From contig CAVUKA010000005.1 in the NCBI GenBank assembly GCA_963741945.1, positions 544,001 to 608,000 of the forward strand: a DNA stretch of 64,000 bases, in the 5' to 3' direction. Source of the stretch: an uncultured Gemmatimonadales bacterium (lineage in GTDB: Bacteria; Gemmatimonadota; Gemmatimonadetes; Longimicrobiales; RSA9). Of this stretch, positions 22,450 through 62,033 are shown one piece after another (the first letter of the stretch is position 1; every line of letters starts with the position of its first letter). The position numbers were made by a program, and so were the translations under genes. Under the pieces are notes generated by a model. The model was not told the DNA's origin and made no database searches. It saw only the letters and a program-made list of their open reading frames with translations.

Positions 22450-22466
22450 CGTCCCATCCCGCTACA
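22450..22466. promoter_or_regulatory. candidate enhancer-binding-protein site (UAS) for the EPS operon
   Basis: CGTCCCATCCCGCTACA, similar to the sites at 41909, 41931, 47906, 49917 and 61928. Confidence 0.55.
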
Positions 22467-22552
22467 AAGTTGCCGGTCGCACCCTGTCGCAACGGCCCGC
22501 GCTGACCCCGTAACACGAGGTCCGCCAGAGACTTGGGGGGCGGCCCCCTCCG

Positions 22553-22568
22553 GGGCACAGGCATTGCC
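22553..22568 (+). promoter_or_regulatory. sigma54 -24/-12 promoter of the HEAT-GT2 operon
   Basis: GGGCAC-AGGCA-TTGCC (GG-N10-GC). Confidence 0.65.
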
Positions 22569-22697
22569 CTTCTGCCGGGTCAGCATTGAACTCCCATACC
22601 GCTCCGCCGATGCTGGCGGGCTCCGGTGCGTTCACAGACGCTCGCCGGGCGGCCCGGACGGCCTCGCAATGAAGCGCAGGAAGGGCTGACGGGAACG

Positions 22698-23855
22698 ATG
22701 AACCAGGCCTCGGGAACGCAGGGGAGCGCAGGGGCTCGGCCTCACGGGGGCGGCCCGGCGCTGGCGGTGCTCGCACTCCAGGGGGGCGCCCCGTTCTGGC
22801 GGAAGCTGCAGCCGGACTGGCCGATGGTCGCGATGGAAGTGACCATCGTGCTGCTCATGCTGACGCTGGTCGGGTTCCTCATTGCCGCGCTGCTGCTGCG
22901 GCGGCGGAACAACCGCAAGGCGGAGCACTGGGGGTCCCTCGAGCGAACCTGGAGCTCGCTGCTCCGCGCCGTGTGCGACGGCTCGGCGGACAGCGCGGCG
23001 ATCCGCTCGACGATCGCGCCGCGCGAAGAGCTGTTCTTCGTCGACTTCCTCTACAAGCGGGCGCTTCAGACCGACGACCCGGAGGACCGGGCCACGCTTT
23101 CACGGCTGGCGACGCCGTACCTGCCGCGCATCGCGTCGCGCACCCGCGGGGGCGACCCCGAGCGGCGGGCCCGGGCGGTGAAAACGCTGGCGGAGCTGGG
23201 CGGGAAGAGCCACGGGCACCTGCTGGTGGCGGCGCTCGATGACCCCTCGCCGCTGGTGGCCATGAGCGCGGCCCGCGGACTGGCGCAGTCGGCGGGGGCG
23301 AGCAGCGTGCGCGAGATCGTGAGCCGCATCGGCCGTTTCAGCGACTGGAACCGCCGCTTTCTGCGGGCGACGCTCACGCAGCTCGGGCCGCCGGCGATCC
23401 CGGCGCTCCGCGACATCGTGCGCGAGCGGCCGCTGGCGCCCGGCGTTCGGGCGGTATGCATGGACGCGCTGGCGGAGCTGGACGACCGCGGCGCCGCGGA
23501 GCTGGCGGAGCTGGCGCTGTGGACGGAAGAGGACGTGGACCTGCGCGCTGCGGCGCTCCGGCTGCTCCGGCGGTGCGGCGGGCCGGAGCACGCGGAAGTG
23601 GTGCGCCCGCTGTGCGCGCACGAGGACCCGGTGATCCGGGCGCAGGCGGTGGGGACGCTGGCGACGATCGGAGAGGAGAGGGACATGGCCGTGCTCGAAA
23701 GAGCGGTGCACGACCCGTCCGCGTGGGTGGCGCTGCACGCGGCGCGGGGGCTGAAGTCCCGGGGCCGTTCGGGGTTCCTGCGGCGCGCCATGGAATCGGA
23801 GGACGCGTCGGCCCCGGCCGGGCTCGCCCTCCAGGTGCTGCTGGAGGAGGGCTGA
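22698..23855 (+). CDS. membrane-anchored HEAT repeat protein
   Basis: One TM segment followed by HEAT-like repeats (ALDDPSPLVAMSAARGL, HEDPVIRAQAVGTL, HDPSAWVALHAARGL). Confidence 0.85.
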   Translation: MNQASGTQGSAGARPHGGGPALAVLALQGGAPFWRKLQPDWPMVAMEVTIVLLMLTLVGFLIAALLLRRRNNRKAEHWGSLERTWSSLLRAVCDGSADSAAIRSTIAPREELFFVDFLYKRALQTDDPEDRATLSRLATPYLPRIASRTRGGDPERRARAVKTLAELGGKSHGHLLVAALDDPSPLVAMSAARGLAQSAGASSVREIVSRIGRFSDWNRRFLRATLTQLGPPAIPALRDIVRERPLAPGVRAVCMDALAELDDRGAAELAELALWTEEDVDLRAAALRLLRRCGGPEHAEVVRPLCAHEDPVIRAQAVGTLATIGEERDMAVLERAVHDPSAWVALHAARGLKSRGRSGFLRRAMESEDASAPAGLALQVLLEEG

Positions 23856-23856
23856 C

Positions 23857-25407
23857 ATGGGCGCGCACATCCTGCTGCTGGCGCTGATCGTCCTGAACGT
23901 GGTGGTGTTCGGGTACTTCCTGATCCTTAACGGCTACTACCTGGTCACCAGCCTCACGTCCTTCCGCGCGCTGCGGCGCTACGCCCGGCGGCTCAACTCG
24001 CTGGACATCGAGGACATCATGCAGGCGGGTGGCGCGCCGCCCGTGTCGCTGATGGTGCCGGCGTACAACGAGTCGGTGGGGATCGCGGACTCCGTCCGCT
24101 CGCTCCTGGACCTGCGCTACCCGGACTACGAGATCCTGGTCATCAACGACGGCTCCACCAATGACACCCTCGACGTTCTGCGGAGCGCGTTCGACCTGCG
24201 CCCGTCCGCGCGCGTCCCGACGGCGGAGCTCGGGCACGGCAAGGTCCGCGGGCTCTATCGCAGCCGCAGCCACCCGTTCCTCTGGGTGATCGACAAGGAG
24301 AACGGTGGCAAGGCGGACGCCCTGAACGTGGCGCTCGACTACTGCCAGGCGCCGTTCTTCTGCTCGCTCGACGCGGACAGCGCGCTCGAGCGGGATGCGC
24401 TGCTCCGGCTGATCCGCCCGTTCCTGGAGAACGCGAACACCGTGGCGGCCGGCGGCATCGTCCGGGTGGCCAACGGCTCGACGTTCGAGGATGGCAGGGT
24501 GGTGGACATCCGCCTGCCCCGGAAGCTCCTGCCGCAGCTGCAGGTGGTGGAGTACCTGCGCGCTTTCCTGGCCGGGCGCATGGGGTGGTCCAGCCTCAAC
24601 GTCATGCTCATCGTCTCGGGCGCGTTCGGCATGTTCCGCCGCGCCGCCGTGGTGGACGTGGGCGGCTACGCAAGCGACACGGTGGGCGAGGACATGGAGC
24701 TGACGCTCCGGCTCCACCGCCGCTTCCGCGAGGCGGGCGAGCCGTACGAGATCGCGTTCGTCCCCGACCCGGTGGCGTGGACGGAAGTCCCCGAGCGCCT
24801 GGGCGACCTGGGCCGCCAGCGCGACCGGTGGCAGCGCGGGCTGATCCAGAGCCTGGCCAAGCACCGGAAGATGCTCTTCCGCCCCAAGTACGGACGCATC
24901 GGCATGGTGGCCTTCCCCTACTTCTGGTTCATGGAAGGCTTCGGCCCGGTGGTCGAGCTGGTGGGCTACGTCGCATTCATCACCGCCGTCCTCCTCGGCT
25001 GGGCGTCCACCACGTACGTGGCCGCCTTCCTCATCGTGGCCGTGATCTTCGGCGTCCTGCTCTCCGTGGCCGCCGTGGCGCTCGAGGAGCTCGTGTTCCG
25101 GCGCTACCAGCACCCGGCGGACTTCAGGCGCATGCTGGTCCTCTCCGTCATCGAGAGCTTCGGCTTCCGCCAGCTGCTCACGTTGTGGCGCTTCCGCGGC
25201 GTGCTCTCCGCATTCCTGGGCAGCCAGGAGTGGGGCCACAAGCAGCGGCACGGCGTCATCCATCACCGCGAGGACCGCGAGGACCGCGAAGCGGGCGATG
25301 TGGTCGGGGAGCGGGACGGGCGCGCGCAGGATGAAGCACACGAGGAGAGTGGAGGCCGCGGCGTCCGGCCGGTGGAGCCGCTCGTGGCCGTGGAGCGATC
25401 GGCATGA
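23857..25407 (+). CDS. processive GT2 glycosyltransferase (IcaA/PgaC-like synthase)
   Basis: VPAYNE, NDGS, GGKADALN, DADS, GED and QRDRW (QxxRW) motifs; TMs at both ends. Confidence 0.92.
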   Translation: MGAHILLLALIVLNVVVFGYFLILNGYYLVTSLTSFRALRRYARRLNSLDIEDIMQAGGAPPVSLMVPAYNESVGIADSVRSLLDLRYPDYEILVINDGSTNDTLDVLRSAFDLRPSARVPTAELGHGKVRGLYRSRSHPFLWVIDKENGGKADALNVALDYCQAPFFCSLDADSALERDALLRLIRPFLENANTVAAGGIVRVANGSTFEDGRVVDIRLPRKLLPQLQVVEYLRAFLAGRMGWSSLNVMLIVSGAFGMFRRAAVVDVGGYASDTVGEDMELTLRLHRRFREAGEPYEIAFVPDPVAWTEVPERLGDLGRQRDRWQRGLIQSLAKHRKMLFRPKYGRIGMVAFPYFWFMEGFGPVVELVGYVAFITAVLLGWASTTYVAAFLIVAVIFGVLLSVAAVALEELVFRRYQHPADFRRMLVLSVIESFGFRQLLTLWRFRGVLSAFLGSQEWGHKQRHGVIHHREDREDREAGDVVGERDGRAQDEAHEESGGRGVRPVEPLVAVERSA

Positions 25408-25457
25408 GAACGCGAGCGTGGATGCGCGAACGAGCGATGCGCGAAGGAGCTGCAGCC

Positions 25458-27059
25458 GTGAAGAAGCTTGTCCTGGCCGCCTGCTTCCTGGCCGTGGCGG
25501 CCCCCGCCACCGGGCAGGTCGGGGACTCGGCCAACACCGCCTGGATCCGCGGCGACGTGCAGGCCGCCGCGCGGCTGTACGAGCAGCGCCTGGCGCAGGA
25601 TTCCAGCGACATCAGCGCGCTGCACCGGCTGGCGCTGGCGAAAGCGTGGAACCGGCAGTTCGACGAGAGCCTGCCCCTGTTCGAGCGCCTGCTCCGCATG
25701 GACCCGGGCAACACGGAAGTTCGCCTCCACGAGGCCAACGCCCTGGCCTGGGCGGGGCGGCTGGACGACGCCCGCCGCCAGGCGGAAGCGGTGCTGCGGG
25801 AGCAGCCGGGTGACACGGCGGCCATCTCGGCCCTCGCCCGCTTCAGCGGGTGGGCCGGGCGCTACGAGGACTCCCGCCGCTACTACCGCCAGGTGCTGCG
25901 GCTGGACCCGGACAACGTGGAAGCGGCGAAAGGGCTCGCCCGCGTCGCGGCGTGGAGCGGACACCTGCGTGAAAGCGAGCGCCGCTGGCGCGAGGTGCTC
26001 GCCGCACAGCCCGGCGACGTGGACGCGCTGGTGGGGCTCGCGGCCACGCTCCGCTGGCAGGGGCGGACTTCCGCGGGGCTCGACGTCCTGGACCGGGCGG
26101 AGCGGCTGGCGCCCGAGAATGCCGACGTGGAAGCGCAGCGCCGCTGGCTGCTCGCCGCGGCGGGGCCGAGCCTGGCCCCCGGCTACCTGTACGAGAGCGA
26201 CTCCGACGGCAACCGGGCGGAGACGTTCCGCCTGGCCGGCTCGTGGCTGGTGGCGCGCCGCGTGGGGCTGCGCTTCACGGCCGACACCCGCGACTTCACC
26301 CAGGAGACGGGGCTCGCCCGCGAGAGCTCGGCGCGCCGCGCCGACCTGGTGCTCAGCCTGGGGCTCGGCGCCGGCTGGACCCTCTCGGGGGGCGGCGGGG
26401 TGAGGACCGGGGACGGGGCCACGCAGGAGTCCATGGGGCTCTGGCAGGCGGCCCTGTCGTCGCCCACGTACCTCCCGGTGAGCGCGTCGCTGAGCGCGAG
26501 CCGCAGCGCGTTCGACTACACGGCGCAGCTGGCGCAGAACAACGTGGCGGTGGAGGAGGCGTCGCTGGGCCTGAGCTCGGTGCTGCTGGCGCGGCGCCTG
26601 CGCCTGAGCGCGCGCGGAGGCATCGCCCGCTTCCTGGCCGCCGAGGACAACACCCGCTGGCTGGCCAATGCCCGGGTCTCGTTCCATCCCGTCCCCGTCT
26701 TCTCGGTGGGCGTGAACGGCCGCGGCTTCGGCTTCGAGAAGGACCTGGCGGAAGGCTACTGGGACCCGACGTTCTACGGCCTCGTCGAAGTGCCGCTCGG
26801 GCTTTCGCTGGAAACGGACCACTTCTTCGGCGGCGCCGAAGTGGCGCCCGGCTACCAGACCGTGGACCACCCGGTCATCCAGGTGGACCACGGCGCGCTC
26901 CGGGCCGATGCCCGCATCGGATTCCGCTTCGCTCCCGGCCGGCAGATCGCCATCTCGGGCACCGTGGCCAACTCCGGCGTCCAGAGAGTCTCCCCCGTCC
27001 CGGACGCGCAGTACGAGTACCGGGCCGTGAACGTCATGCTCAGCTGGTCGCTCCGCTGA
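25458..27059 (+). CDS. TPR plus outer-membrane beta-barrel protein (PgaA/YaiO-like export pore)
   Basis: GAAGGAG RBS before GTG 25458; signal peptide; TPR repeats then amphipathic beta-strands ending VMLSWSLR. Confidence 0.75.
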   Translation: MKKLVLAACFLAVAAPATGQVGDSANTAWIRGDVQAAARLYEQRLAQDSSDISALHRLALAKAWNRQFDESLPLFERLLRMDPGNTEVRLHEANALAWAGRLDDARRQAEAVLREQPGDTAAISALARFSGWAGRYEDSRRYYRQVLRLDPDNVEAAKGLARVAAWSGHLRESERRWREVLAAQPGDVDALVGLAATLRWQGRTSAGLDVLDRAERLAPENADVEAQRRWLLAAAGPSLAPGYLYESDSDGNRAETFRLAGSWLVARRVGLRFTADTRDFTQETGLARESSARRADLVLSLGLGAGWTLSGGGGVRTGDGATQESMGLWQAALSSPTYLPVSASLSASRSAFDYTAQLAQNNVAVEEASLGLSSVLLARRLRLSARGGIARFLAAEDNTRWLANARVSFHPVPVFSVGVNGRGFGFEKDLAEGYWDPTFYGLVEVPLGLSLETDHFFGGAEVAPGYQTVDHPVIQVDHGALRADARIGFRFAPGRQIAISGTVANSGVQRVSPVPDAQYEYRAVNVMLSWSLR

Positions 27060-27081
27060 GGACGTGAGGGAAAGGGCGACG

Positions 27082-29764
27082 ATGATGACCGGCAGGATCC
27101 ACCTCCGCGTGGCCCGGCGCACCGTCTGGCTGACGGCCACGGTCCTCGTCCTCGGCTCCATGATGCTGGTGAACGCCGGTGCGGGCGCCCAGTACGTCTG
27201 CCCGCGCGCCGCCGACCCGGAAGTCCAGGCTGGCTGGGCCGCGTACCGGCAGGGCGACATGGCCGCCGCGCGCGACCACTTCGACGAAGCCGTGGGCCGC
27301 TGCCCCCGTCACGTGGGCGGACGGACCGGGCTGGCCTACGTCGAGCTACGGAGCGGCAACACCGTCGCCGCCAGCCGCCTGTTCGACGCCGTCCTGTCCG
27401 GGCACCCGAACGCCGTCGACGCGCTGGTGGGGCGGGGCATCGTGGCCTGGCGCCAGGACGAGCTCGCGCTGGTGGGCGACCGTGTTCCAGCGCGTGCGAC
27501 GACTCGATCCGGGCAACGCCGAAGCCGACCGCTACCTCGGGCTCCTGCAGGCCCGCGAGCCCGCCCCCCGTCCCGCCCCGCCCCGCCCGCCGCTGACGCG
27601 GCCGGACACCCTCGAGCTGCCGGCCCGCGCCTTCGGCGACCACCTCGAAGTGCGCACCGACACCGGCTGGGCCCGTCTCTACATCAAGGCCATCGACCTC
27701 GGCGCGGCGCTCCCCGGCCACTTCGCCACCCAGTTCCCGGACTCCGCCACCTACGCCCGCTGGCTGGACGGGATGGCGGCCACGGGAGCCAACGCCGTGC
27801 GCGTGTACACGCGCCACCCGCCCGCGTTCTACGAAGCGCTCGCCGACCACGACGCGCGCCACCCCGACCACCCGCTCTGGCTCATGCAGGGGGTGTGGGC
27901 GGACCTGCCGCCGGACGGCACCCGCTACGCCGATCCGGCCTGGCAGGGCGAGTTCCTCGCCGACGTCGGCCGCGCCATCGACATCATCCACGGCCGCGCC
28001 GACATCGCGCCGAAGCCCGGCATGGCCTCCGGCCACTACGCCGCCGACGTGTCGCGCTGGACGCTGGCCATCATCCTGGGGCGCGAGTGGGAGGCCACGT
28101 CGGTGATCGGCTTCGACCGGCTGCGCCCCGACTTCACCGCCTGGGCCGGCACCTACGCCACCGCCACCGGCGCGTCGCCCATGGAAGCGTGGCTCACCAT
28201 GGTCGTGGACTCCACCGTGGCCATCGAGACGCGCAGGTACAACACGCAGCGGCCGGTCTCCTACACCAACTGGCCCACCACCGACCCGCTGCGCCACCCG
28301 ACGGAAGCAACCAGCCTCGAGGAAGCCGCCATCCTCCGCGGCCTGGGTGACGGCATCGACCTCGGACAGGTGATGCTGGAAGGCGAGGACGCGGTCACCA
28401 TCGACCCGGGGCACACGCGCGCCACCGGCCGCTTCCCGGCCGGGTTCTTCGCCACCTACCACGTCTACCCGTACTACCCGGACTTCATGACCCGCGAGCC
28501 GGCGTACCTGCACGCCGTCTCGCCCTGGGGCCCCTCCAACTACTTCGGCTACCTCACCGCCCTGAAGCGCTACCACCGCGACATCCCCGTCTTCATCGGC
28601 GAGTACGGGCTGCCCCCGAGCATCGGCGTGTCCCACGTCGCCCCCTTCGGCTGGCACCACGGCGGCCTCACCGAGGCGCGGGCCGCCGCGGGCACCGCAC
28701 GCCTCACCCGCGAGATCGCCGCCGCGGGCATGGCCGGGGGCGGCGTGTTCGAGTGGATCGACGAGTGGTTCAAGAAGACGTGGGTGACCCAGCAGTTCGA
28801 GTCGCCGCCGGAACGGGACCGCATGTGGTACAACCGCCTCGACTCCGAGGAGCACTTCGGCCTCAACGCCGTGGAGCCGGAGCCCCGCATCCGCGGCGAG
28901 ACCCTCGCCGAGCGGGTGAACGGCGGCTGGCTCATGGTGCGGCCGGCATACGACGATTCCACCCGGGGCACCCTCCGCCTCCTGGCCGACGAGGCCTACC
29001 TCCGCGTGCTCTACGTCGCGCCGCGGCGCGTCGACGAGGTCCTGCTCGGCTTCGACGTCATCGACCCCCGCCGCGGCGACAGCCGCTGGCCCGGCAAGGT
29101 GGGCCCCCGCCTGCCCGTGGGCCTCGAGGTCGTCCTGCGCGCCCGCGGCGACACCGCCCGCATCCTGAAGGACACCCACTCGCAGCCGATCCGGATCCGC
29201 GAGCTGCCCGCCGCGCCCATCGATTCCGGACCCGACATCGCGTCGCCGCCGCCAGGGTTCTTCCGCGGCCGATTCGTCACGGTCGGCAGGCTGCGCATCC
29301 ACTCCCGCCTCAACGACGACGGCGTCTACGAACCGCCTCGCCTGGTCTTCTCGCGACGCATGTTCGCCCGCGACTCCACCGAGTTCGCCGCCCTCGGCTA
29401 CGACGCCGGCCTGCTGCCGAACGGCCCCGGGCCCGACGGCCTGTGGCAGACCAATGGCACCGCCTGGGAGTTCCGCATCCCCTGGCAGCTCCTGGACGTG
29501 GGCGACCCCAGCCAGCTCCTCGTGCTCCAGGACACGCTCCAGCGCTGGCGCGGCGGCCCCCTGGAGACCGTGCCCGTGGACGCCATCCGCGTCCTGGCCG
29601 CCGCCCGCACCCGCTCCGGCGACTGGCTCCAGCTCCCGGCCTCCAACCGCCTCGAGGACGTCGCCTCCTTCTCCTGGGCCACCTGGGAAGAGCCGAAGTG
29701 GCAGGCCAGGCCCCGGCCGGTCCTCGATTCCCTGCGCGAGGCGTGGAGCGGGATACCGGAATGA
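27082..29764 (+). CDS. secreted TPR plus GH-A-clan-like TIM-barrel protein; +1 frameshift at about 27475
   Basis: Signal peptide and TPR in one frame, continuing as ATVFQRVRRLDPGNAEA in the next frame after an extra G; GANAVRVYT, LGREWE and FIGEYG motifs. Confidence 0.75.
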
Positions 29765-29962
29765 CGGAGCCGTTGCGGGAACGCTGCGCACCGTAGACGG
29801 GGTTCGATGAGCGGAGGTTCATCTCCGGCTGGGGTGGCATCTCCACCTCCCGAACACCAATCTTTAGTGGGCACCGTTTGGGCCGCGGTTCGCGCAGCGT
29901 CGAGTATTCCCAACGTCCACTTTAGCGAAAGACATTGCAAAATCCTACTCAATGACACCCGG

Positions 29963-30931
29963 TTATCGGACCGCATTTACGGCCAGAGACTGGTCAGATA
30001 TCGCTCGGGGATGATGGCTGGAAACGAAGACCGCGATGGGCACCAGCGCCAGCGGGAGATAGGGGATCAAAACGTACGGCGATGCGAATACTCCCGCCAC
30101 GAGGACGCAGGCCACTTGCAGCCGTGGCGAACGATGCCGCAGCATGACACCCACCACTACGGGAGCCAGCACTCCCAGGAACACCGGGATCCATGGAAGG
30201 CCGAGCCAATCGCCAATAGGGGTGGTGGGCGAAAGGTTGAGACCCGCCCACCCTTGCGCCACGTGCGGCAACACCTCGGTGAGCCAATGAAGCGACGCGC
30301 GAACGAACCCGCCCGGTGAAAGTGCCGCCATTCCCACGAGGACCGACCCGGCCAAGGCGGCTGCGGCGCCAGCAAACGCGCGGCGGTCCCGAGCTGCGGC
30401 AAAGGCGAGGGGAAAAACAGCATACGGCTTGACCACGGCGACGAGGGCAAGGAGTGCGCCGCGTCGTGCGCCGGAAAGAGCCACACCCCATCCCGCCAGC
30501 GCCCAAAGCACCGGGTCTACATTGGCGAAACCCAGGCCCACGGCTGCACCGGGGAACGCCCCCGCGATGAATACCCAGGCGGCCCATCCTGATGGCGTGG
30601 CCCGCCCATGGGCGATCCTGGCCAGTGCCGCGGCAAAGGCCCAGAACGAGGCGAACAGCAGCACGGACCAGCACCGGCTGAAAGTCACGAAGGACATCCG
30701 CGGAGCCAGGGACAGCGCAGGGGCGAGCACCGGGGGATAGAGGTACCAGAAGTCCCCGTGTTCGACGACCTTGCCCTTCGACATGGGCGGATACAGCGGC
30801 TCGCCGTCCTGGATCCTCCGTTGCGCCAGCCAGTTGCTGGGGACGTCCCGATCGCTCCAGGACGGATTCATCATTTCCCGCGGCAGCATGACAACGGCGG
30901 TTGCCGCGGTGAATGCCCACGCTACCATCAT
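29963..30931 (-). CDS. GT87/DUF2029-like GT-C glycosyltransferase
   Basis: GEPLY, YLYPP, ANVD and VKPY motifs, many TMs; alternative TTG start at 30967. Confidence 0.75.
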   Translation of the reverse strand: MMVAWAFTAATAVVMLPREMMNPSWSDRDVPSNWLAQRRIQDGEPLYPPMSKGKVVEHGDFWYLYPPVLAPALSLAPRMSFVTFSRCWSVLLFASFWAFAAALARIAHGRATPSGWAAWVFIAGAFPGAAVGLGFANVDPVLWALAGWGVALSGARRGALLALVAVVKPYAVFPLAFAAARDRRAFAGAAAALAGSVLVGMAALSPGGFVRASLHWLTEVLPHVAQGWAGLNLSPTTPIGDWLGLPWIPVFLGVLAPVVVGVMLRHRSPRLQVACVLVAGVFASPYVLIPYLPLALVPIAVFVSSHHPRAISDQSLAVNAVR

Positions 30932-41805: not shown

Positions 41806-41821
41806 AGCAGTGGCCATGCCG
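41806..41821 (-). promoter_or_regulatory. sigma54 -24/-12 promoter of the glycosylation cassette
   Basis: Minus strand CGGCAT-GGCCA-CTGCT (GG-N10-GC), about 40 nt before ATG 41764. Confidence 0.6.
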
Positions 41822-41908: not shown

Positions 41909-41947
41909 TGTTCCACCGCGGAACCGAGGCAGTGCCGACCCGGAACA
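41909..41947. promoter_or_regulatory. tandem candidate UAS sites, 22 bp apart
   Basis: TGTTCCACCGCGGAACC (41909-41925) and AGTGCCGACCCGGAACA (41931-41947). Confidence 0.6.
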
Positions 41948-47905: not shown

Positions 47906-47922
47906 TGTTCCATCCCGGCACA
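47906..47922. promoter_or_regulatory. candidate UAS site
   Basis: TGTTCCATCCCGGCACA, 102 bp before the sigma54 element at 48008. Confidence 0.6.
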
Positions 47923-48007: not shown

Positions 48008-48023
48008 GGGCACATCGATTGCC
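48008..48023 (+). promoter_or_regulatory. sigma54 -24/-12 promoter
   Basis: GGGCAC-ATCGA-TTGCC, same form as the element at 22553. Confidence 0.65.
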
Positions 48024-49643: not shown

Positions 49644-49964
49644 ATGACACCGGACCAGATCCTCGCGCTCGCCATCCTCGTCACCGTGCTCGCCATCGTC
49701 GCCATGATCGTGCTGGCGGCCGCCGGATACCTGGTCTTCCGGCTCCGGGCCGGCGCCGCCGATCGGGGCGCCGACAGCGATGCCGCAGAGGCCACACCGG
49801 GCAGGCCGTACTTCTTCGAGCGCATCGGGCTGCCGGAAGCGGATGGCCTGGCCGATTCCGTGCCCGGAGGCCGCGGGCGCACGGTAACGCCACCACGGGG
49901 AAAGGGATGGCCGGGTTGTCCCGTGATGGAACAAGACCCTTGTAACCCCGGGGACACCCGCTAG
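49644..49964 (+). CDS. small single-TM hypothetical protein
   Basis: Starts 1 nt after the previous stop; N-terminal TM; C-terminus overlaps the next promoter region. Confidence 0.55.
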   Translation: MTPDQILALAILVTVLAIVAMIVLAAAGYLVFRLRAGAADRGADSDAAEATPGRPYFFERIGLPEADGLADSVPGGRGRTVTPPRGKGWPGCPVMEQDPCNPGDTR

Positions 49965-49967
49965 ATT
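49917..49967 (+). promoter_or_regulatory. UAS-type site adjacent to a sigma70-like promoter of the kinase/regulator genes
   Basis: TGTCCCGTGATGGAACA (49917-49933), then TTGTAA (49940-49945)-N16-TAGATT (49962-49967). Confidence 0.5.
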
Positions 49968-50045
49968 GGCACCCTGACCGGCGCGCCAGTCCGGCGCGCG
50001 GACCTCCCGCGGACCACAGCCCTTCGCAACCGGAACGAGACGCGC

Positions 50046-51782: not shown

Positions 51783-53157
<1,375 letters not shown>

Positions 53158-53161
<4 letters not shown>

Positions 53162-54954
53162 CACCCCGCTCTCCCGAACGCGCGCTGCTGCGCCGGCCAC
53201 CTGCGTGGCCATGGATGGTCACGACCGCCGGGATACTGATGACTGCCGCGGCGGCTCGCGGGCGCCGCTGGCCCGACCTCCTTCGGGGGCAGCTCTCCGA
53301 CCCCGACGGGTACATGCGCCTCGTCCGAGTGCGTGAGCTTGTCCGGTCTCCGCTGAGCTGGTATCACGCCGAGATCTGGCGGAGCAACGTGCCGTTCGGC
53401 GAAGCCATGCACTGGACGCGCCCCCTGGACGCGCTGCTCGCTCTCGTGGCGCTTCCCCTCGAGCCGGTGATCGGCGCCAGCGCCGTTCTGGTTGCGGGTC
53501 TGGTGGTGCCGCCGCTCCTGCTTCTGGCTAGCTGCGTGGCGGCTGCATGGATGGTACGGCCGCTCGTCCGCGACCTCCATCCCGCCATGACCGCGCTCTT
53601 CGTCCTCGGTCAGCCGCTGGTCGTGAGCTATGGCCTCCCCGGGCGCGCCGACCATCACCTCCTCATCCTTCTCCTGGCCGCGCTGGTGCTCGGCGCCGCG
53701 GTCCGCATCGCCGAGGGGCGGAACGCCATCGAGGCGGCGCGGTTCGGCGGGATCGCGGCCGCCCTGGGAATCTGGGTGAGCACCGAGGCGCTGTTCGCCT
53801 ACGGAATCGCCACCGTGCTGCTCGGACTGCCGTGGCTGACGGAATCGCGGGAGAGCCACTGGGCTCGCGTCAACGCCAGATTCCATGGATGGGCCGCGCT
53901 GGGGCTGGCGGCCGCCATCCTCCTGGAGCGTCCCTACACTCAGTGGCTGACCCTCAGTCTCGATCGGATCAGCGCGGTCCATCTCATCCTTGCCATGGGC
54001 CTTGTCCTCTTCTGGGCATTCGCCTCCGGCGTTCGGGCCCGGGGCGTTCGGCGCCGCGCGGCCCTCGCCGCAATGGGAGCGGCCATGCTCCTCACGACCC
54101 TCAGCGCCATGGCACCCGGTTTCGCGGCCGGCCCCTTCGCCCGCGTCGATCCGGGACTCCGCACACTATGGCTGAGCCACGTCCAGGAGTTCCTGCCGGT
54201 GCCGTGGAGTCCCGGGAGGGCGCTGGCCTATTTCGGCGCACCGCTCACGGCAATGGTCGGGTTGCCGCTGCTACTCCGGCCGGGCAGCGGGGGCAGGCGT
54301 GGAGTGGCCGTGCTGGCGTTCCCGCTCCTGCTCGCCTCCGTGATGGGCGTTGCACAGGTGCGATGGCTGCTGTACGCGCAGCTGATCGCGGCGGCCCTGC
54401 TGGCGGTGTACGTGTCCCGGGTCCGCGAACGGCTATCCGAAAGCCTTCCGCACCGCCTCCTGAAGGCGCTGGTGGTTGTCATAGCGGCCACCGCCTGGCT
54501 TGTGGGCGGGGGGGTGATCGACGCCTTCATCCACCCGGCTCCGCGCGTAGCCGACAGCGTTCCCGCATGCGGCGAGCGGGATGTGATCTCCGCCCTCCAG
54601 GGTGCTGGATTCAGCGGGCCACAGGTGGTGGCCGCCCACGTAGACTTCGGGCCCGCGATCCTGTTCCGAACCCGTGATGCCGTGGTCGCCGCCCCGTACC
54701 ACCGCAATTCGGGCACCCTCGCCGTCTACCAGGCGCTCAACGCGGTGGATCCGGAGCGCGCCAGAACCATCCTCCGGGCACGCCGGGTCGACCTCGTGGT
54801 CGTGTGCCCGGGCCACGACGAACCGTTCTTCCAAAAGCGGGTCCAGGGCGCGGAGACGCTTTTCGGGCATCTCGCCGCCGGGGATCCGCCTCCATGGCTG
54901 GCACCTCTCCCCCGTGGTTCCGGGGGTGCGGTCCTTTACCAGGTCCGGGAATGA
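53158..54954 (+). CDS. STT3/AglB-like GT-C glycosyltransferase
   Basis: DPDGYMR, HWTRPLD, GRADHH, VQE and HVDFG...APYH; about 13 TMs; TTG start overlaps the regulator's stop. Confidence 0.75.
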
Positions 54955-56935
54955 CGTCCAGCCGAACGCGCGCGGGGTTGACCTGGGCGTCCGCGGGCGC
55001 GGTCATGGTGCTGTGGGTGGTGGCGGCATCATACCAGCGATGGTCCCAGCTCTCGGCCGGATGGCTCCCCGGAACGGACGCGTACATGCGCCTCTTGCGC
55101 GTCCAGCGTCTGCTCGGGGGCGCCGGCTGGTTCGATGGGTCGATTCCGCGCAGCAACGTTCCCTACGGCGAGATGCTGCACTGGACCCGTCCCCTGGACG
55201 TGCTCATCGTCGCGGTCGCAATGGTCGTCAAGCCCTTCTCCCACGATCCACTGCTCACCACCGCTCTCGTCCTCCCGCCCGCGCTGATGATCGCGGCGGC
55301 CGTTGCGGCCGCCTGGATGGTCAGGCCCCTGTTGCAGGAGCTGTCGGCTCCGCTCGCGGCGATCTTATTCGTGGGCCAGCCCGTGGTCTTCGCCTACGGA
55401 TTCCCCGGTCGTGCCGATCACCATCACCTCATCCTGCTGGCTGCTCTCATTCTTTTCGGCGCCATGGTACGGCTGCTCATCCGCCCCAGCTACGACATGG
55501 CTGTCGTCGCCGGGCTGGCAGCCGGATTCGGAATGTGGGTCAGCGTCGAAGCGCTGCTCGCGTACGCCATCGTGACGGTGGTACTCGGACTTGCCTGGCT
55601 GAGGGGCGACACGCGGGCGTGGGCGCGGTCAACCTGCGCTTTCACGCCGCCGCCGCGCTGGTCGTGGCGGTCTCGATCATCGTGGAGCGGCCTCCGGCCC
55701 AATGGCTGGATGTCTTCCTGGACCGCGTCAGCGTGGTTCATCTCCTCGTCTGCCTCGGCCTCGTGGCCTTCTGGGCGCTCGTGGCCCCGCGGGTCGCGGA
55801 CGCTGGCGCGAGATCGAGGATGGCTGCGGCGGCGCTGTCCGGGGGTGCCATAGCCGCCCTCATTGCCGCTGTCGCACCGGCCTTCTTCCTCGGGCCGTAC
55901 GCGAGCCTCGATCCGGCCCTGGTGGCTGTCTGGCTCCCCGGCATCAGCGAAGTCCACCCGGAAACGCTGACGCCGCGCCGGATCCTGCTGCACCTGGGCG
56001 CACCCGCCGTGGCTCTCGCCGCAACCGCCGCGGCAGCGCTGCGGACGGCGAGCCACCGGCCCGCGCGAGCGGCGCTCCTGGTCCCCCTTTCGGTCACCCT
56101 GGTCCTCGGGATCTTTCAGTTCCGCTGGCTCCTGTATGCCGAAGCACTCGGGGCCGCGTTGCTGGCCGTCGCCATCTCCGACGCCTCCGTCACCCTGCGC
56201 GGCTCCCCTCTCCAGCCCTGGGTCCGTAGCACGCTGGCGGTGGCGGGCACGTTCGGATGGGTGGTGGTCGGAAGCCTGCCGTGGCCAACGGCCAACTCCG
56301 CACCCGAGTTCGCATCCACATCCGGCTGCTCCGATCAGCAGGCCGTCGCCGCGCTCGATGGCCTCGGCCCGAGCACCATCGCCACGTACGTCGATCTCGG
56401 GCCGGTGATCCTCTATCATACATCGCACGCGGTGCTGGCCGCCCCCTACCTCCACAATTCCGGCAACCGGGTGGTCATCGGGACACTGGACGCTCCGCTC
56501 GCCGAGGCCGACCCGGCCGAGCTCCGGGAGCGCGGCGTGAATTTGGTGCTGGTGTGCCCGGCCGGAAGGGACGCATACCTCGTGGCGGAGCGCGACGGGC
56601 GGGAGACCCTGTACGGCGCCCTCGTCCGGGGCCGCCATCCCGCCTGGCTCACACCCGTAGGAGATCCGGTTGAAAGTGCACCGGTTCGCCTCTACCGTCT
56701 GACGGGGAGCGCCGTCCCTGTTGCGCACCGCGGCTCTCGCGTGTCTCGCGCCGGAACAGAGTGGCCCGACGCCGCATCCGCCGCGAGGGCGAACAGTGGC
56801 GTATCCACGCGAATTCCGGCCGGTCGACGGCGTGCCAGAGGCGAGGAACGGCCCATGCCCTTTCGACGGGCATTTCGAGTCCACCCGGGCAACCCATGGC
56901 TGATCGCATCGTGGAAATCGGACACCCTCTCGTAA
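54951..56935 (+). CDS. STT3/AglB-like GT-C glycosyltransferase paralog; -1 frameshift at about 55628
   Basis: GTDAYMR, HWTRPLD, GRADHH, ISE, YVDLG; adding one G restores WARVNLRFH (paralog WARVNARFH); 3' end uncertain. Confidence 0.7.
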
Positions 56936-57669
56936 GCGTCATCCTCCCGGCGCGCGACGAAGCGGGCACCATCGCCGAGGTGGTGCGCCGGGTCGCGGCT
57001 TCCGTGGAGCGACGGGGCTGGAGCTACGAGATCGTGCTCGGAGACTCCGCGTCGTCGGATGACACCGTCGCCCGTGCCCTGGAAGCCGACCCCCGCCTGC
57101 GGGTCGTGCGCGCCGAACGCCCCGGAAAGGGATTCGCCCTCACACGGGCGTTCCTGCACGCACGCGGCCAGATCCTTGCCTTCATGGACAGCGACCTCGA
57201 CCTCGCCCCGGAAGACCTTCCCGCCCTCATCGACGCCGTTCTCGCCGGCGCCGCCTGCGCCGCCGGCGCCAAGACCGGCGCCGCCCTGGCGTCACGACCA
57301 TTCTTCCGTCGCATCGCGAGCAGGGCTGTGAACGTGGCCGCCCGCTTGGCGCTGCGCAGCGGCATCAGCGATCATCAGACCGGAATGAAGGCGTTCGATG
57401 GGGCGGCGCTCCGGGCCGTCCTCCCCGAAGTCATGGAAGCCGGGTGGCTCTGGGACACCGAAGTCCTATGGCGCCTCGGCCAGAGGGGTTCGGCCGTGGT
57501 CCAGGTTCCCGTGGGCCTCTCGGGAGCGCGGGACGGCGCCTTCCGGAGCTGGCCGGACAGGATCACAGGGCTCGCGCAGGTCTTGTCGCTGTACGCACGC
57601 CTCTCCCGCGAGCCGGCACGGAACCCCGCGCATGCCGATGCGGTAGCGTCGGGCCGATCCCGCAGGTAG
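56896..57669 (+). CDS. GT2 polyprenyl-phosphate glycosyltransferase
   Basis: SVILPARDE, PGKG, FMDSDL, DHQTGMK, WLWDTEVL. Confidence 0.88.
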   Translation: MADRIVEIGHPLVSVILPARDEAGTIAEVVRRVAASVERRGWSYEIVLGDSASSDDTVARALEADPRLRVVRAERPGKGFALTRAFLHARGQILAFMDSDLDLAPEDLPALIDAVLAGAACAAGAKTGAALASRPFFRRIASRAVNVAARLALRSGISDHQTGMKAFDGAALRAVLPEVMEAGWLWDTEVLWRLGQRGSAVVQVPVGLSGARDGAFRSWPDRITGLAQVLSLYARLSREPARNPAHADAVASGRSRR

Positions 57670-57671
57670 GA

Positions 57672-59852
57672 ATGCCGCCCCGGGCGGACCGTTCGGACTC
57701 GCGTCCCGCAGGTGCCGTCCCGTCTTCGCGCCCGGCACACGGGTCGTTGATCGGCATTTCCCTCCTCTTCGCCCTCGTTGCGGTGGCGTACGGCACCGGA
57801 GTCCGGCCACTTCTGCACCCCGGACCTCCAGTGTTCGGCGATCTCGGCGGCCATATGGTGCCGATCCGTGAGGGAGTGGAAGCGCTCCGCCAGGGTCACC
57901 TCCGGGGATGGTCCTACAGCTGGTTCGGCGGATTCCCCCGATTCTACTTCTATTTCCCGCTGCCCTCCATCCTCGTGGCGGCGCTGTCGATGGTGCTGGG
58001 GCTCGGCCGGGCCGCGATGCTGGGCGTGCTCGTCGGGCCGCTGCTCCTGCCGCTCGCGGCCGCATCCCTGGTTACCGCATCGGGCGGCACACGGCGAGGC
58101 GCGATCCTGGTCGCAGCGGGATCGGCGGTCTTCCTCCTCTCCCGCTCGCTCGGGCTGGACGGGGGAACGCTCGAATCGGCCATCGTCGGTGAGTTCTCGT
58201 ACGGCATCGCCATGCCTCTCGCGCTCTTCTACCTGGCGTCGCTCCCCGAGCTGCTGCGCGGACGCCGCCTCACCCGGTTCGCGCTCTCGGCCGTGCTGCT
58301 CGCGCTCACGGCCCTTTCGCACGTCCTCGTGACCGCCGTCGCCATCGTGGCTTCCCTAGCCCTGCTCCGGCGCCGGCGGGACCTGATGACCGCGGCCGCC
58401 ACCTGGGTCTTCGCCTTCCTCCTCACCGCCTGGTGGAGCGTGCCTTTCCTGTGGTTCGCCGGCGAGATGGGGGATCTGGCCTGGAAACCGTTGTCGCCCG
58501 CGCAGCTTTCTGCCGCGTTGATCGAAGGAATCCCCCTCGGGGTCCTGGGCGTTCTCGCGTTCACGTGGCGAAGCCCGGCCCTTGGTGAACGGTTCTACCG
58601 CCTCGCAGCCGTGTTCGCGGTCCTGGCCCTCGTCCCTCTCCTGGTCCCTCACACCCCCTTCTACTCCGGGCGGCTCCTCCCCTTCGGGATGTGGGCAGCG
58701 TCCGCGCTCGCCGCTGTCGCCGCATGGCAGTGTCTCCAGGCTCTCGCGGCTCGCCGCCACCTCGTCCGCACGGGGATCGGGCTCCTGGCATTGGCGGCCG
58801 CCCTCGTCGTTGCGGTCCTCCGTCCCCCCCCACGCGGGCTCGCCGAAGCCAACTTCGGCGGCATGCGGGCGGCCGTCGACTACCGCGACTGGCTGTCCCT
58901 GCAACAGCGTGTCCAGCGGCTCCCCGCGGGAGCGGTTGCGGAGGCTTCGCTCTTCGAGCGCGACGCGGCGCGCCCGCGCTTCATCTCCGATGGCGGGCTT
59001 CTGCAACTGGAGCGGCTCACCGGCCACCGGACGGTCGGGGGGACGTGGCGGGAATCCAGCCCCAGAGGTTCATACGAGTTTCGCGCGCGCGGACACCTCC
59101 GCGCGGACACCTCCTCCATGACCACCGGGTTCCCGGCGCGCAGTCCGGATCGCGGCCTCGGGGTCCGGCAGGCCCGCCTGCTCGGGGCCCGCTTCCTGTT
59201 CGTCTCCGGATCCACCACCGCGCTCGATACCATCTCCTGGCCCAGTACCCGAGAGATCGCCCGGGACTCCACCTGGCGGTTGTTCGAGATCGCCGATGCG
59301 GCCATCGCGCGCACGCTCCGCCGCTTCACGCCCACCCCTGCAGACTCGTTCGCCCTGGCAGCCGCCCGCTGGTTCGAGGACGGGGGTCGGAGTGCTCTCC
59401 CCGTCCGGATCGACGCCGCCGAAGCGCCGACCACGGGGGGGCTGCCGGAGCCCGCGCGAATCGACGAGTCCGCCATCACCATGAGCCCGGAGGAAATCCT
59501 GATCCCGGGTGCGGTGCCCGGCCAGCCCCTGCTGGTTCGGCTGTCCTTCTTCCCGAACTGGAAGCTCGCAACGCCGGGACGCGGGCCCTACCGCGCCGCA
59601 CCCAACGACATGCTGATCATCCCCCGCTCCGAGACCATCCGCCTGGTCTGGCGCCCCGGCTGGCCCGAACGCGCCGGCCTTGCCGCGAGTGTCGGGTCTG
59701 CTCTCGTCCTGCTCCTCCTCCTCGGCACGGCCCTGGCCCGCCGTCGCCGCCGCCCACCCTCGCCGTCCTCCTCCCCGCTCCGCCCCCATGGAACGCTCGC
59801 CGCGGGCTCCCCCCGTCACGCGGTCGAAGACCCTGAGGAACTGTGCCTGTGA
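57672..59852 (+). CDS. PTPS-related/YfhO-like GT-C membrane protein
   Basis: GDLGGH, GWSYSWFGGFPRFYFYFPLP, GEFSY, ALSH, WWSVPF and SFFPNW motifs. Confidence 0.75.
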   Translation: MPPRADRSDSRPAGAVPSSRPAHGSLIGISLLFALVAVAYGTGVRPLLHPGPPVFGDLGGHMVPIREGVEALRQGHLRGWSYSWFGGFPRFYFYFPLPSILVAALSMVLGLGRAAMLGVLVGPLLLPLAAASLVTASGGTRRGAILVAAGSAVFLLSRSLGLDGGTLESAIVGEFSYGIAMPLALFYLASLPELLRGRRLTRFALSAVLLALTALSHVLVTAVAIVASLALLRRRRDLMTAAATWVFAFLLTAWWSVPFLWFAGEMGDLAWKPLSPAQLSAALIEGIPLGVLGVLAFTWRSPALGERFYRLAAVFAVLALVPLLVPHTPFYSGRLLPFGMWAASALAAVAAWQCLQALAARRHLVRTGIGLLALAAALVVAVLRPPPRGLAEANFGGMRAAVDYRDWLSLQQRVQRLPAGAVAEASLFERDAARPRFISDGGLLQLERLTGHRTVGGTWRESSPRGSYEFRARGHLRADTSSMTTGFPARSPDRGLGVRQARLLGARFLFVSGSTTALDTISWPSTREIARDSTWRLFEIADAAIARTLRRFTPTPADSFALAAARWFEDGGRSALPVRIDAAEAPTTGGLPEPARIDESAITMSPEEILIPGAVPGQPLLVRLSFFPNWKLATPGRGPYRAAPNDMLIIPRSETIRLVWRPGWPERAGLAASVGSALVLLLLLGTALARRRRRPPSPSSSPLRPHGTLAAGSPRHAVEDPEELCL

Positions 59853-61919
59853 GCCGGAACACCGCGTGGATCGCCGCTGCGCTCGCTCCGCTGCCGCGGC
59901 GATCCTCTACGGTATCGGCACGCTCCCCCTCCTCCACCCTGAGACTCCCGTCCTCGGCGACCTCGGCGGGCACATGGCCCCGATCCGGGAGTCCATCGAG
60001 TCGCTGCGCCGCGGCGGGCTGCGGGGCTGGTCCTACTCCTGGTTCGGTGGATACCCGCGATTCTACTTCTATTTCCCGCTTCCCACCCTTGCCATCGCCG
60101 GGCTGGCCAGCGTCCTGCCACTCGCCGTAGCGGTGATGCTGGTGGTGCTGGCCGGGCCGTTCCTCACGCCCCTGGCCGCGGGGGCGCTGGTCGTGGCCAC
60201 GGGGGGCACGAGCACCGGCGCGGTGGTCGTGGCCACGGGATCGGCGTTCTTCCTCCTGTCGCATGCTCTCGGCCTGGCGGGCGGAACGCTGGAGGCGGCG
60301 GTCGTGGGCGAATTCTCCTACGGGCTCGCTTTCCCGCTCGGGCTTCTGTACCTCGCCTCGCTGCCGCCACTGTTCCGGCGCCGGACCGCGTCGGCGTTCG
60401 CGCTTTCGTCTCTCCTCCTGGCCGGGACGGCGCTGTCCCATGTCCTCGTTACGGGCGTCGTCGTCCTGGCCTCGACGGTGCTTGCCCGGAAGCGCGACGG
60501 GTGGTGGCTGATCGGGAGCTGGGTCGCTGCGTTCTGCGTTTCCGCGTGGTGGACGCTCCCGTTCCTCTGGTATCGCGGCGAGATGAGCTCGCTCCACTGG
60601 GGTCCGCTACCCGCACCACAGGTCGATGCGCTTCTGTACGAGGGAGTGCCGGCGGCGGTGCTGGCGGTATTGGCGTTCGCCTGGCGCGGCCCGCACGTGG
60701 GGCGGGGGTTCTATCGCGTAGCAGGCGTGTTCATCGCGGCTTCGATGATCCCCCTGGTGGTTCCCGATTCCCCGATCTACCGGGCCCGCCTCATGCCCTT
60801 CGCTTTCCTGGCGATCAGCGCGCTGGCCGTACTGGCGGTCTTGCAGTCGGTCGAGGCCATGGCTGCGCGACGGCATCGAGGCCGCGCCGCCGTGGGCGTC
60901 CTCGGGCTGGGCGCCCTTCTGGGCCTGGTTGCCCTGAGAGACACGCCGCGCCGTGCGGCAGAAGTGATATTCGGCGGTACGGCCTCCGCCGCGGACACCA
61001 CATCGTGGCGGGCGCTTCTGGAGGAGCTGGACCGCCTGCCGCCCGGGGCCGTGCTGACGGCGGCGCGTTTCGAGCCGGACGGTGGCGGCGAGCGCACGGC
61101 GCGCCTCCTCGGCGATGGCGGATTCCGGCACCTCGCCGGATGGACGGGTCGGCGTATCATCGGCGGGCTGTGGCAGGAATCCGGCCGCAGCAGCCCGTAC
61201 GTCACCCGTGCGCGCGCCAACCTCGCGGGGGGTGGAACCACGCTGGCTGCCGCCGGCGACGAAGGAGTCCCGGATGCGGCGCTGGGGGTCCGTCAGGCGC
61301 GCCTCCTCGGGGCGCGGTTCATCGTGCTGGCCGGCGACCCGCGATTCCTCGCCCGCGCTATTCTCCCGGGCACACTGGAGTTGGCCCGCGACTCGATCTG
61401 GCGCCTGTACGAGATCCACGATGCGGCCGTCGCGCTCGGTCCGGGCCTCCTGCGACCGGTCCCCAGTGACTCTCTCCCCCTCGCCGCAGCCGCCTGGTTC
61501 CGGTCCGGCGGCCGTGAACCGCTCCCCGTGTCCGCTCCCGGCAGCACGGTGCCGGCGGCCGCGAGCGGAGCTCCCGTCCGGGTTCCGGAATCGGCCGTGC
61601 GCCTCCTGCCGGGAGAGATCAGGGTGACGGGGCGCACCCCGGTGTCCCGATGGTGCTCCGGCTGTCGTACTTCCCGAACTGGCGCCTGGCGTCGCCGGGT
61701 GTCGGCCCGTTCCGGGCCGCGCCAAGCCATATCCTCGTGGTCCCCGCCTCCCGTGAGGTCCGCCTGGTCTGGCGCCCCGGCACGGCCGAGACGATCGGCA
61801 CGCTCACGAGCATGATCGCCGCGGCGCTGCTCCTGGCGGCTCTCTCGATCCAGATGATGCGCCGATCCGGTCCGGACTCCACCCCCTTCCCGATCGTTCC
61901 CAGGCGTGTCGCATCGTGA
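59849..61919 (+). CDS. PTPS-related/YfhO-like GT-C paralog; -1 frameshifts at about 59886 and 61631
   Basis: GTGA-coupled start VSRNTAWIAAAL, core in the next frame (GDLGGH, GEFSY), tail MVLRLSYFPNW in the third frame, all collinear with the paralog. Confidence 0.7.
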
Positions 61920-61944
61920 CGGGCGCGTGTCCCGATGCGCGACA
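61907..61944. promoter_or_regulatory. candidate UAS site(s) upstream of flp
   Basis: TGTCCCGATGCGCGACA (61928-61944) plus a weaker site beginning TGTCGCA 21 bp upstream (61907). Confidence 0.55.
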
Positions 61945-62017
61945 AACCAGCCGTTCCCGCGATCGACCGGACACACGAAAGTCCAGCAATGGCGCGGAAA
62001 ACCTGCGATGGCACGCG

Positions 62018-62033
62018 CGGCACGGCTCCTGTA
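62018..62033 (+). promoter_or_regulatory. possible variant sigma54 promoter of flp
   Basis: CGGCAC-GGCTC-CTGTA: good -24 element, -12 reads GT instead of GC. Confidence 0.35.

Follow-up and report, generated by a model that had tools for sequence, protein, structure and literature searches.

The window analysed here, a 64,000-nt stretch of the genome of an uncultured Gemmatimonadales bacterium (G000; a 4.09 Mb draft in 8 contigs with 70% G+C, of which the window is C5:544001-608000), probably encodes a two-component switch for cell-surface genes. Its sensor histidine kinase and NtrC-family σ54 activator are predicted to act, through shared 17-bp sites and σ54 promoters, on an exopolysaccharide (EPS) operon, a membrane glycosyltransferase operon, the gene for a KaiC-like ATPase and the pilin gene flp, and to control their own operon as well (Table 1). 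Genes were mapped from Pfam matches and codon-based gene calls. For comparison we used G001, a genome of the same genus that is syntenic with G000 across the entire window, and a wider set of 73 family genomes; G021 and G070 represent two further genera bearing the motif. Four genomes flagged as unpublished (G016, G017, G020 and G026) support none of the statements made below. The σ54 gene rpoN is present in single copy (one PF04552 match at C8:116520-116996, E 1.7e-64).

An earlier, sequence-only reading of this DNA had proposed six related quasi-palindromes ahead of operon starts. All six 17-mers were indeed found where it had placed them, in non-coding DNA and ahead of gene starts, and they share the motif T-G-T-Y-C-C-N5-G-S-N-A-C-A, a 17-bp inverted repeat with a 6-5-6 layout, in which G2, T3, C5 and C16 are invariant. 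Against the strict consensus TGTYCC-N5-GGRACA, to which all mismatch counts refer, the 4.09 Mb genome contains two exact and 19 one-mismatch places; only six of the 21 lie between genes, and the window sites account for four of them. Looser matches are common genome-wide (351 places with two mismatches, 3436 with three), and for the weaker sites the letters by themselves are therefore not enough. When each site was omitted in turn from the matrix and then ranked among 4,088,511 genome positions, the sites at 49917 and 47906 came 4th and 5th, outscored by training sites only, while those at 22450, 41909 and 41931 ranked about 80th and that at 61928 252nd. A matrix built from 17 sites of four genomes returned the six window sites as the best five intergenic matches of G000 and the seventh, a ranking that is partly circular, as these sites are included in the matrix; outside the window, none of its matches in G000 had a credible σ54 promoter 70–125 bp away.

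As decisive evidence for the motif we regard its ranking in G001. Pairwise alignment of the two genomes revealed ~74–84% identity in coding DNA and 47–70% in non-coding spacers. The shared motif claimed by the sequence-only reading proved to be conserved: a matrix derived from the six window sites only, run over the syntenic 80 kb of G001, recovered orthologous sites, with sites 1 to 6 ranking 4, 15, 5, 1, 2 and 3 among 79,984 positions. The site 1 orthologue, at the aligned place, reads TGTGCCACTCCGCTACA; that of site 2 is TGTCCTATCGCACACC in the pairwise alignment and is listed as TGTCCTATCGCACACCA for rank 15; and those of sites 3 to 6 are TGTCCTGACTCGCAACA, TGTCCCATCCCGGAACA, TGTTCCGTCGTGGTACA and TGTCCCGATGCGGTACA, respectively. 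G001 carries two extra TGTGCC-type copies in tandem, ~22-23 and 45 bp before site 1, and in both genomes site 6 is preceded, at 21 bp, by an identical 16-bp block. Both features are consistent with the multi-dimer sites usual for such activators.

Of four σ54 elements previously proposed downstream of the sites, three are canonical (22553, 41821 on the minus strand, and 48008), with GG and GC doublets 10 nt apart in a TGGCAC-N5-TTGCW-like context, and the fourth, at 62018, is a non-canonical variant. In G001, the EPS promoter reads GGCACgtgggTTGCC and the minus-strand promoter GGCACgacggGTGC, both with GG-N10-GC kept; the promoter of the KaiC-like gene is conserved in G001 (again with GG-N10-GC), G021 and G070. 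Elements of this kind are enriched between genes in this genome: matches to at least 10 of 11 consensus positions number 28 in intergenic and 13 in coding DNA, with intergenic DNA making up 13% of the genome (at 9/11, the counts are 143 and 342).

Sites and promoters are held at a nearly fixed distance. Measured from the site centre to the first G of the −24 GG, the spacing is 96 bp in G000 and 97 bp in G001 for the EPS operon, 97 and 98 bp from site 2 for the minus-strand operon (119 and 120 bp from site 3), and 95, 95, 97 and 98 bp in G000, G001, G021 and G070 for the KaiC-like gene; the start-to-start offsets reported earlier, 103 bp at 22450 and 102 bp at 47906, were reproduced. A match to at least 8 of 11 positions at 93–99 bp from a random intergenic position has a chance of 0.88%, and its occurrence at three of the six sites a binomial probability of 1.3e-5. 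Two further candidates from these spacers were set aside. A duplication of the module at sites 1 and 4 was judged too weak, at 43% ungapped identity versus 29 ± 4% for random spacer pairs and only 39% outside site and promoter, and a GTAAC pentamer recurring between sites and promoters was dropped, its 22510 copy not being kept in G001 and its 47965 copy only partly.

Upstream of the kinase–activator operon the arrangement is different: site 5 adjoins a conserved TTGTAA-N16-TAGATT. No conserved −24/−12 element follows the site; a TGGCAC at 49967 is one base short in G001. The −35-like hexamer is kept in four genomes (TTGTAA, TTGTGA, TTGCAT or TTGTAG) and lies 6–8 bp after site 5 in G000, G001 and G021, or further downstream in G070; TAGATT lies 16 nt after it in G000 and G001. 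Counterparts of site 5 were found before the kinase gene in G001, in G021, where a perfect TGTTCCGTAACGGAACA stands ~220 bp before the gene, and in G070, as a tandem pair. In the classic case of autoregulation, that of NtrC, which represses its own promoter, an operator stands beside the −35 element of the operon that encodes the regulator. By its position, site 5 thus probably serves autoregulation of the kinase–activator operon.

At flp, the element at 62018 departs from the canonical form in having GT where the −12 GC is expected (GA in G021 and G070). Its 16-mer recurs letter for letter in a metagenome contig; the G001 counterpart reads CGGCACGCCTCCTGTA, those of G021 and G070 are GGGCACG-N4-GTGA, and GGCACG together with TG is conserved in the flp promoters of five genomes. 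The spacing from site 6 to the GG is 83, 83, 86 and 86 bp in G000, G001, G021 and G070, and 83 bp in the metagenome contig; equivalents of site 6 are present in G070, G021 and that contig. The contig came from a pattern scan of metagenomes that returned four loci, two of which represent one true relative in two records and two of which are false, lying in coding DNA. In G013 and G046, the flp promoter is canonical, TGGCA(C/T)G-N4-TCGC, and lies 84 bp after GTACC-N5-(G/A)TTAC. Conservation of this kind suggests that 62018 is probably a working σ54 promoter with a non-canonical −12 rather than a canonical member.

Beyond the genus, G021 and G070 also carry the motif ahead of their KaiC-like, kinase and flp genes. 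Orthologues of the activator share 90% identity in G001, 74% in G021 and G069, 71% in G070 and ~60% in G013, G046 and G047. The distance from the activator gene to flp is 0.3–0.4 kb in G070 and G021, with site and promoter between them, the layout of a pilin-linked regulator, and in G013 and G046 flp lies within ~3 kb after the activator gene. The corresponding gap in G000 and G001 contains 8.6 kb of membrane glycosyltransferase-like genes, a set that stands between activator and flp only in these two genomes; two paralogue pairs occur among its six genes. A 20-kb contig of G070 displays the order KaiC-like, TPR, GT2 synthase, kinase, activator, flp, cpaA, tadE, cpaB. Its top matches to the window matrix are situated upstream of the genes for the KaiC-like ATPase (183), the kinase (6060 and 6078, in tandem) and flp (9601), apart from the third-ranked match (1617), which falls inside the KaiC-like coding sequence. 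In G001, G070, G021 and G069 together, 16 places match TGTYCC-N5-GGNACA exactly, as compared to four strand hits in total for the reversed control pattern; six of the 16 are island sites, and one stands beside a KaiC-like paralogue only.

Orthologues of the KaiC-like ATPase were detected in 13 of the 73 family genomes (E <=1e-70), and 17 KaiC-like upstream regions were inspected. Twelve of these carry a σ54-like element: four have a TGTYCC-type site 95–98 bp before the GG (G000, G001, G021 and contig C133 of G070); six have a GTTAC-N8/9-GTAAC palindrome 94–96 bp before the GG and a −12 of TTGT (L004 in G013, L039 in G046, L040 in G047, L005 in G011, L041 in G059 and L042 in G058); and two have neither site type. 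The remaining five regions have neither site nor element; one belongs to the second copy in G070 and the others to distant paralogues. The exact GTTAC palindrome occurs once each in G013, G046 and G047. We had considered it a diverged version of the operator described here and withdrew this interpretation, since in G013 a second activator, 40% identical, divergently adjoins the KaiC-like gene; we hence assign the palindrome to this second activator rather than to the 51782 orthologue. In those genomes, the KaiC-like gene appears to be under a different enhancer–activator pair at the same spacing. A paralogue of the ATPase, 35% identical, is encoded downstream of the Tad locus (C5:618072-619493 in G000, 10 kb beyond the window, with a counterpart in G001), and every paralogue upstream region inspected lacks both motif and σ54 promoter. 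A pattern search of genome contigs for KaiC-like proteins gave 263 matches, none of which was confirmed, and the hint of a receiver domain in the ATPase reaches E 0.29 only.

The activator encoded at 51782 combines a receiver (REC) domain (PF00072, 4e-30), a σ54-interaction AAA+ domain (PF00158, 2.3e-66), PF25601 and a Fis-type helix-turn-helix (HTH; PF02954, 9.2e-07), i.e. the NtrC-family architecture. Its translation contains Walker A GDTGTGKE, IFLDEIG, Asp55 in LSDLRMPG and GAFTGA, the last of which had correctly been described as intact. Members of this family bind upstream inverted repeats ~80–150 bp from a promoter, and predicted sites with suitable geometry are present. As three genera have sites at the operon of this activator, flp abuts its gene (in G070 and G021) and the regulon is confined to the island, it is the most likely candidate for the binder. 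In addition, G000, G001, G021 and G070, which have the recognition helix GGHKS..ISRGRLDR, carry TGTYCC-type flp sites (G069 has this helix, too, and no flp was found there), and G013 and G046, with GGNKT..ISRPRL, carry the flp site GTACC-N5-(G/A)TTAC, of 5-5-5 geometry and 84 bp from the GG. It is suggestive that helix and motif change together.

Several observations weigh against this reading. The four weaker sites are individually not significant, and site 1, with three consensus mismatches, is weak by its letters alone. Raw identity of the 17-mers between G000 and G001 amounts to 10–15 of 17 positions, a level equaled by 12–52% of non-coding 17-nt windows, and footprinting by raw identity between the two genomes did not single out the sites; this can be explained by the variable central five bases and by the high overall conservation of the flp spacer. 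The promoter of flp lacks the −12 C, and a σ70 scan called nothing in 41700-50100, where the kinase-operon element, at 8/12, stays below threshold. For nine of the 16 exact matches to TGTYCC-N5-GGNACA, no window-gene homologue exists within 1.5 kb; these nine are unexplained. The first gene of the EPS operon, for the HEAT protein, has no orthologue in G070, G021, G069, G013 or G046 (0/5), so that the EPS branch of the regulon rests on G000 and G001 only. As to the binder, the genome encodes 17 σ54 activators with full-length PF00158 matches (plus four weak AAA+ matches), i.e. 16 besides the local one, including a 56%-identical paralogue; the co-variation of helix and motif comes from two or three lineages and amounts to roughly one evolutionary event; and we infer the assignment to 51782 from synteny and correlation.

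This choice of regulators makes room for an alternative in which the enhancer is real but bound by another σ54 activator or HTH protein, e.g. the 56%-identical paralogue (C3:68655-70025), with the local pair as just one of its targets. The paralogue has a similar HTH, ISRPRLDRLIRKY, and the KaiC-like gene of G013, with its second, 40%-identical activator and GTTAC-N8-GTAAC site, indicates that control of this gene changed hands at least once. However, no strong site is found near another activator, all of them being clustered within ~30 kb of the gene for the local one; the operon of the local activator is flanked by sites in three genera, with flp abutting the activator gene; and the TGTYCC motif goes together with the HTH signature SRGRL. 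We therefore consider it unlikely that another protein is the binder.

Still less probable is a regulon reduced to its core (KaiC-like gene, kinase–activator operon and flp), with the sites at 22450, 41909 and 41931 being chance look-alikes at promoters of other activators. Their leave-one-out ranks of only ~80, with ~35 intergenic positions scoring equally, the three mismatches of site 1 and the missing orthologue of the EPS operon in the other motif-bearing genera would fit such a reduction. Yet all three sites are kept in G001 (ranks 4, 15 and 5 of 79,984) though the spacers around them are just 47–49% identical, and the EPS and minus-strand promoters stand 96–98 bp from their sites in both genomes, as does the promoter of the KaiC-like gene, a coupling with a chance of ~1e-5. 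That the palindromes are no protein sites at all, merely chance similarities or RNA/DNA hairpins left by repeats, is hardly credible: loose matches are frequent in a genome of 70% G+C, as counted above, but four genomes and one metagenome contig retain the motif at corresponding positions, its good matches are intergenic and at a fixed distance from promoters, and arms of 6 nt separated by a variable 5-nt centre are ill suited to forming hairpins.

Under the favored two-component reading, the kinase would sense a signal and phosphorylate the receiver domain of the regulator, which would then bind the sites as dimers via its C-terminal Fis-type HTH, at some promoters to tandem sites 21–23 bp apart. 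From about −120, it would loop to the σ54 holoenzyme and drive the ATP-dependent opening of the EPS, minus-strand and KaiC-like promoters, and from about −107 act in the same way at the flp/Tad promoter with its non-canonical −12; the fifth site, beside a σ70-like −35, would let it control its own operon. Transcripts would be expected to start ~12 nt after the −12 elements, at ~22580, 41796 (minus strand), 48033 and 62044, leaving 5′ untranslated regions (UTRs) of ~120, 32, 56 and 134 nt, respectively; a start of the σ70 type would be expected at ~49974. A search of sequencing runs found window DNA in one DNA run (share 0.46) and listed no RNA run.

The earlier proposal that the regulator drives the whole 40-kb island has to be narrowed. 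No promoter was found for the operon at 42121-47603, neither a recognisable σ54 element nor another, and the genes at 53215-61815 have no site or promoter of their own, although they may be co-transcribed with the operon of the regulator. The regulon hence leaves out the 42121-47603 operon and the genes at 29807-30319. Its ancestral core would comprise kinase, activator and flp plus the KaiC-like gene, with the EPS and glycosyltransferase operons seemingly later recruits in this genus.

Table 1. Predicted regulatory elements and genes of the window (positions in window coordinates; n/11 and n/12, consensus positions matched).
Feature	Position	Strand	Remarks
Site 1, CGTCCCATCCCGCTACA	22450..22466	.	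Before EPS operon; three mismatches (our count)
Site 2, TGTTCCACCGCGGAACC	41909..41925	.	Before minus-strand operon; one mismatch
Site 3, AGTGCCGACCCGGAACA	41931..41947	.	In tandem with site 2, 22 bp beyond; two mismatches
Site 4, TGTTCCATCCCGGCACA	47906..47922	.	Before KaiC-like gene, in a 35-bp conserved island; one mismatch
Site 5, TGTCCCGTGATGGAACA	49917..49933	.	Before kinase–activator operon; no mismatch, only perfect match of the six
Site 6, TGTCCCGATGCGCGACA	61928..61944	.	Upstream of flp; one mismatch
σ54 promoter, GGGCACAGGCATTGCC	22553..22568	+	EPS operon (~22699-29764); 9/11, GG-N10-GC
σ54 promoter, CGGCATGGCCACTGCT	41806..41821	-	Minus-strand operon from 41764; 8/11
σ54 promoter, GGGCACATCGATTGCC	48008..48023	+	KaiC-like ATPase gene; 9/11, GG-N10-GC
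Variant σ54 promoter, CGGCACGGCTCCTGTA	62018..62033	+	flp-cpaA-tadE-cpaB; −12 TGT, not TGC
σ70-like TTGTAA-N16-TAGATT	49943..49967	+	Kinase–activator operon; 8/12
Conserved structured flp 5′ leader	62049..62176	+	Five hairpins, the last touching the ribosome-binding site
DUF5916 protein	19999-22383
EPS operon	22626-29764	+	HEAT-repeat protein, GT2 synthase, TPR protein, 861-aa unknown (Pfam)
Membrane glycosyltransferase operon	41764 down to ~31036	-	Nine genes: amine oxidase, GtrA, PMT/GT87-like (GT-C-like), PAP2, GT87, unknown, methyltransferase, GT2, unknown
Operon of two unknowns, ABC transporter, M50 protease	42121-47603	+
Small minus-strand gene	47617-47799	-
KaiC-like ATPase gene	48089-49642	+
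Sensor histidine kinase	50046-51782	+	HAMP, HisKA, HATPase_c (Pfam)
NtrC-family σ54 activator	51782-53161	+	REC, AAA+ with GAFTGA, HTH_8 (Pfam)
Six membrane/glycosyltransferase-like genes	53215-61815		STT3/PMT-like and GT2 matches
flp pilin, cpaA prepilin peptidase, tadE, cpaB	62177-64000	+	Tad locus continues past the window end

The flp mRNA would begin with a conserved leader that is ~95% identical to its G001 counterpart, far above the ~76% of coding DNA, and that recurs in G021, G070 and one metagenome contig. Across five sequences, its predicted structure comprises 37 pairs, three of them with two-sided compensation; in the last hairpin, CACC is predicted to pair with the GGAG of the ribosome-binding site. 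No Rfam family reached its gathering score anywhere in the window, with only sub-threshold noise in 61800-62400. A covariance model of the leader, run against the 73 family genomes, retrieved, beyond its four inputs, eight weak matches (E 2e-6 to 8e-3), which were treated as false because none adjoins flp or any island gene. We take the leader to be a candidate for a new cis-regulatory or stabilising RNA. A bolder scenario, which we find doubtful, would have an ancestral pilin regulator (kinase, activator and flp) grow into a surface-remodelling regulon by means of rigid cassettes of site, 96 bp and promoter, put ahead of EPS and glycosyltransferase operons that had been newly acquired, with flp under a further layer of control made up of a −12-defective promoter and a 130-nt five-hairpin leader that could act as a new riboswitch or thermosensor gating the ribosome-binding site.

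A few side observations concern the surroundings of these elements. The minus-strand glycosyltransferase cluster (36000-42000) has a G+C content of 64–67% versus ~71%, a weaker third-position bias and an alignment to G001 at only ~68–76% with rearrangements, which together suggest that it was acquired later and afterwards put under the enhancer of the island. Two blocks, TTACTCCGTAACAGC and GTCAATGAT (47843-47877), located between the small minus-strand gene and site 4, are identical in G001 and may represent the promoter of that gene or another operator. At 56742-56758, coding DNA just before a GT2 gene contains a one-mismatch copy of the motif, TGTCTCGCGCCGGAACA (TGTCTCGCGGCAGAACA in G001), with no σ54 promoter within 125 bp.

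The predicted circuit resembles several known systems. PilS–PilR control pilA, which encodes a type IVa pilin, in Pseudomonas, Geobacter and Myxococcus; there, too, a kinase and an NtrC-family activator lie beside the pilin gene, which has a σ54 promoter and upstream sites, whereas the pilin of the present island is of the Flp/Tad type (type IVc), the motif differs and the −12 of flp is TGT or TGA. NtrC binds TGCACC-N5-GGTGCA at tandem sites ~100–140 bp upstream and at an extra site at its own σ70 promoter (glnAp2, glnL). With NtrB–NtrC the present pair shares the domain architecture, the 17-bp 6-5-6 repeat, tandem sites ~two helical turns apart and a site at its own operon, but the half-site here is TGTYCC and the targets belong to the cell surface instead of nitrogen metabolism. 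NifA is a GAF-domain activator whose upstream activator sequence is TGT-N10-ACA. Its sites resemble the present ones in their TGT...ACA ends and in standing ~100 bp ahead of a −24/−12 promoter; beyond that, the analogy drawn in the sequence-only reading breaks down, as all 17 collected sites show a spacing of N11 and the regulator possesses a REC but no GAF domain.

The closest experimental case is, from its published description, DVU2114 of Desulfovibrio vulgaris Hildenborough, a σ54 response regulator that DAP-chip showed to target Flp-type pilin genes next to cpa/tad (Rajeev et al. 2011, PMC3333781). As described there, it likewise is a two-component σ54 activator encoded beside Flp-type pilin and cpa-tad genes, targets the pilin promoter and has a motif conserved in few relatives only (PMC3333781). 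It stems from another phylum, and its binding was measured, whereas ours is predicted; moreover, the motif described here also marks an EPS operon, a glycosyltransferase operon, the KaiC-like gene and the operon of the regulator itself. More generally, Francke et al. (2011, PMC3162934) have argued that σ54 controls the exterior of bacteria, and EPS, glycosylation and surface-appendage genes under σ54 fit this theme as that survey outlines it; flp, tad and pilin do not figure in its main text, where Gemmatimonas serves for tree placement only. A Pectobacterium study states that VasH did not control flp/tad. Literature searches found no paper joining flp, tad, σ54 and an enhancer-binding protein and, for Gemmatimonadetes with σ54, nothing on this subject; 'Flp pilin' with RpoN gave only Pseudomonas reviews.

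We regard the observation as real and the predicted circuit as an ordinary kind of bacterial control. The extras that it offers are modest: a regulon of some local breadth, a −12 variant that is conserved and a structured leader. For an uncultured lineage, it would provide a testable regulatory map consisting of one kinase, one activator, a 17-bp operator and five promoter regions, and would add a further lineage to the few with documented or predicted σ54 control of Flp/Tad pilins. The flp element would be a naturally conserved σ54 promoter without the −12 C, and the recruitment of promoter cassettes a small case of regulon growth. Taken as a whole, the map would place Tad pili, a polysaccharide made by a synthase, membrane glycosyltransferases and a KaiC-like signalling ATPase within a single programme of adhesion or biofilm formation.

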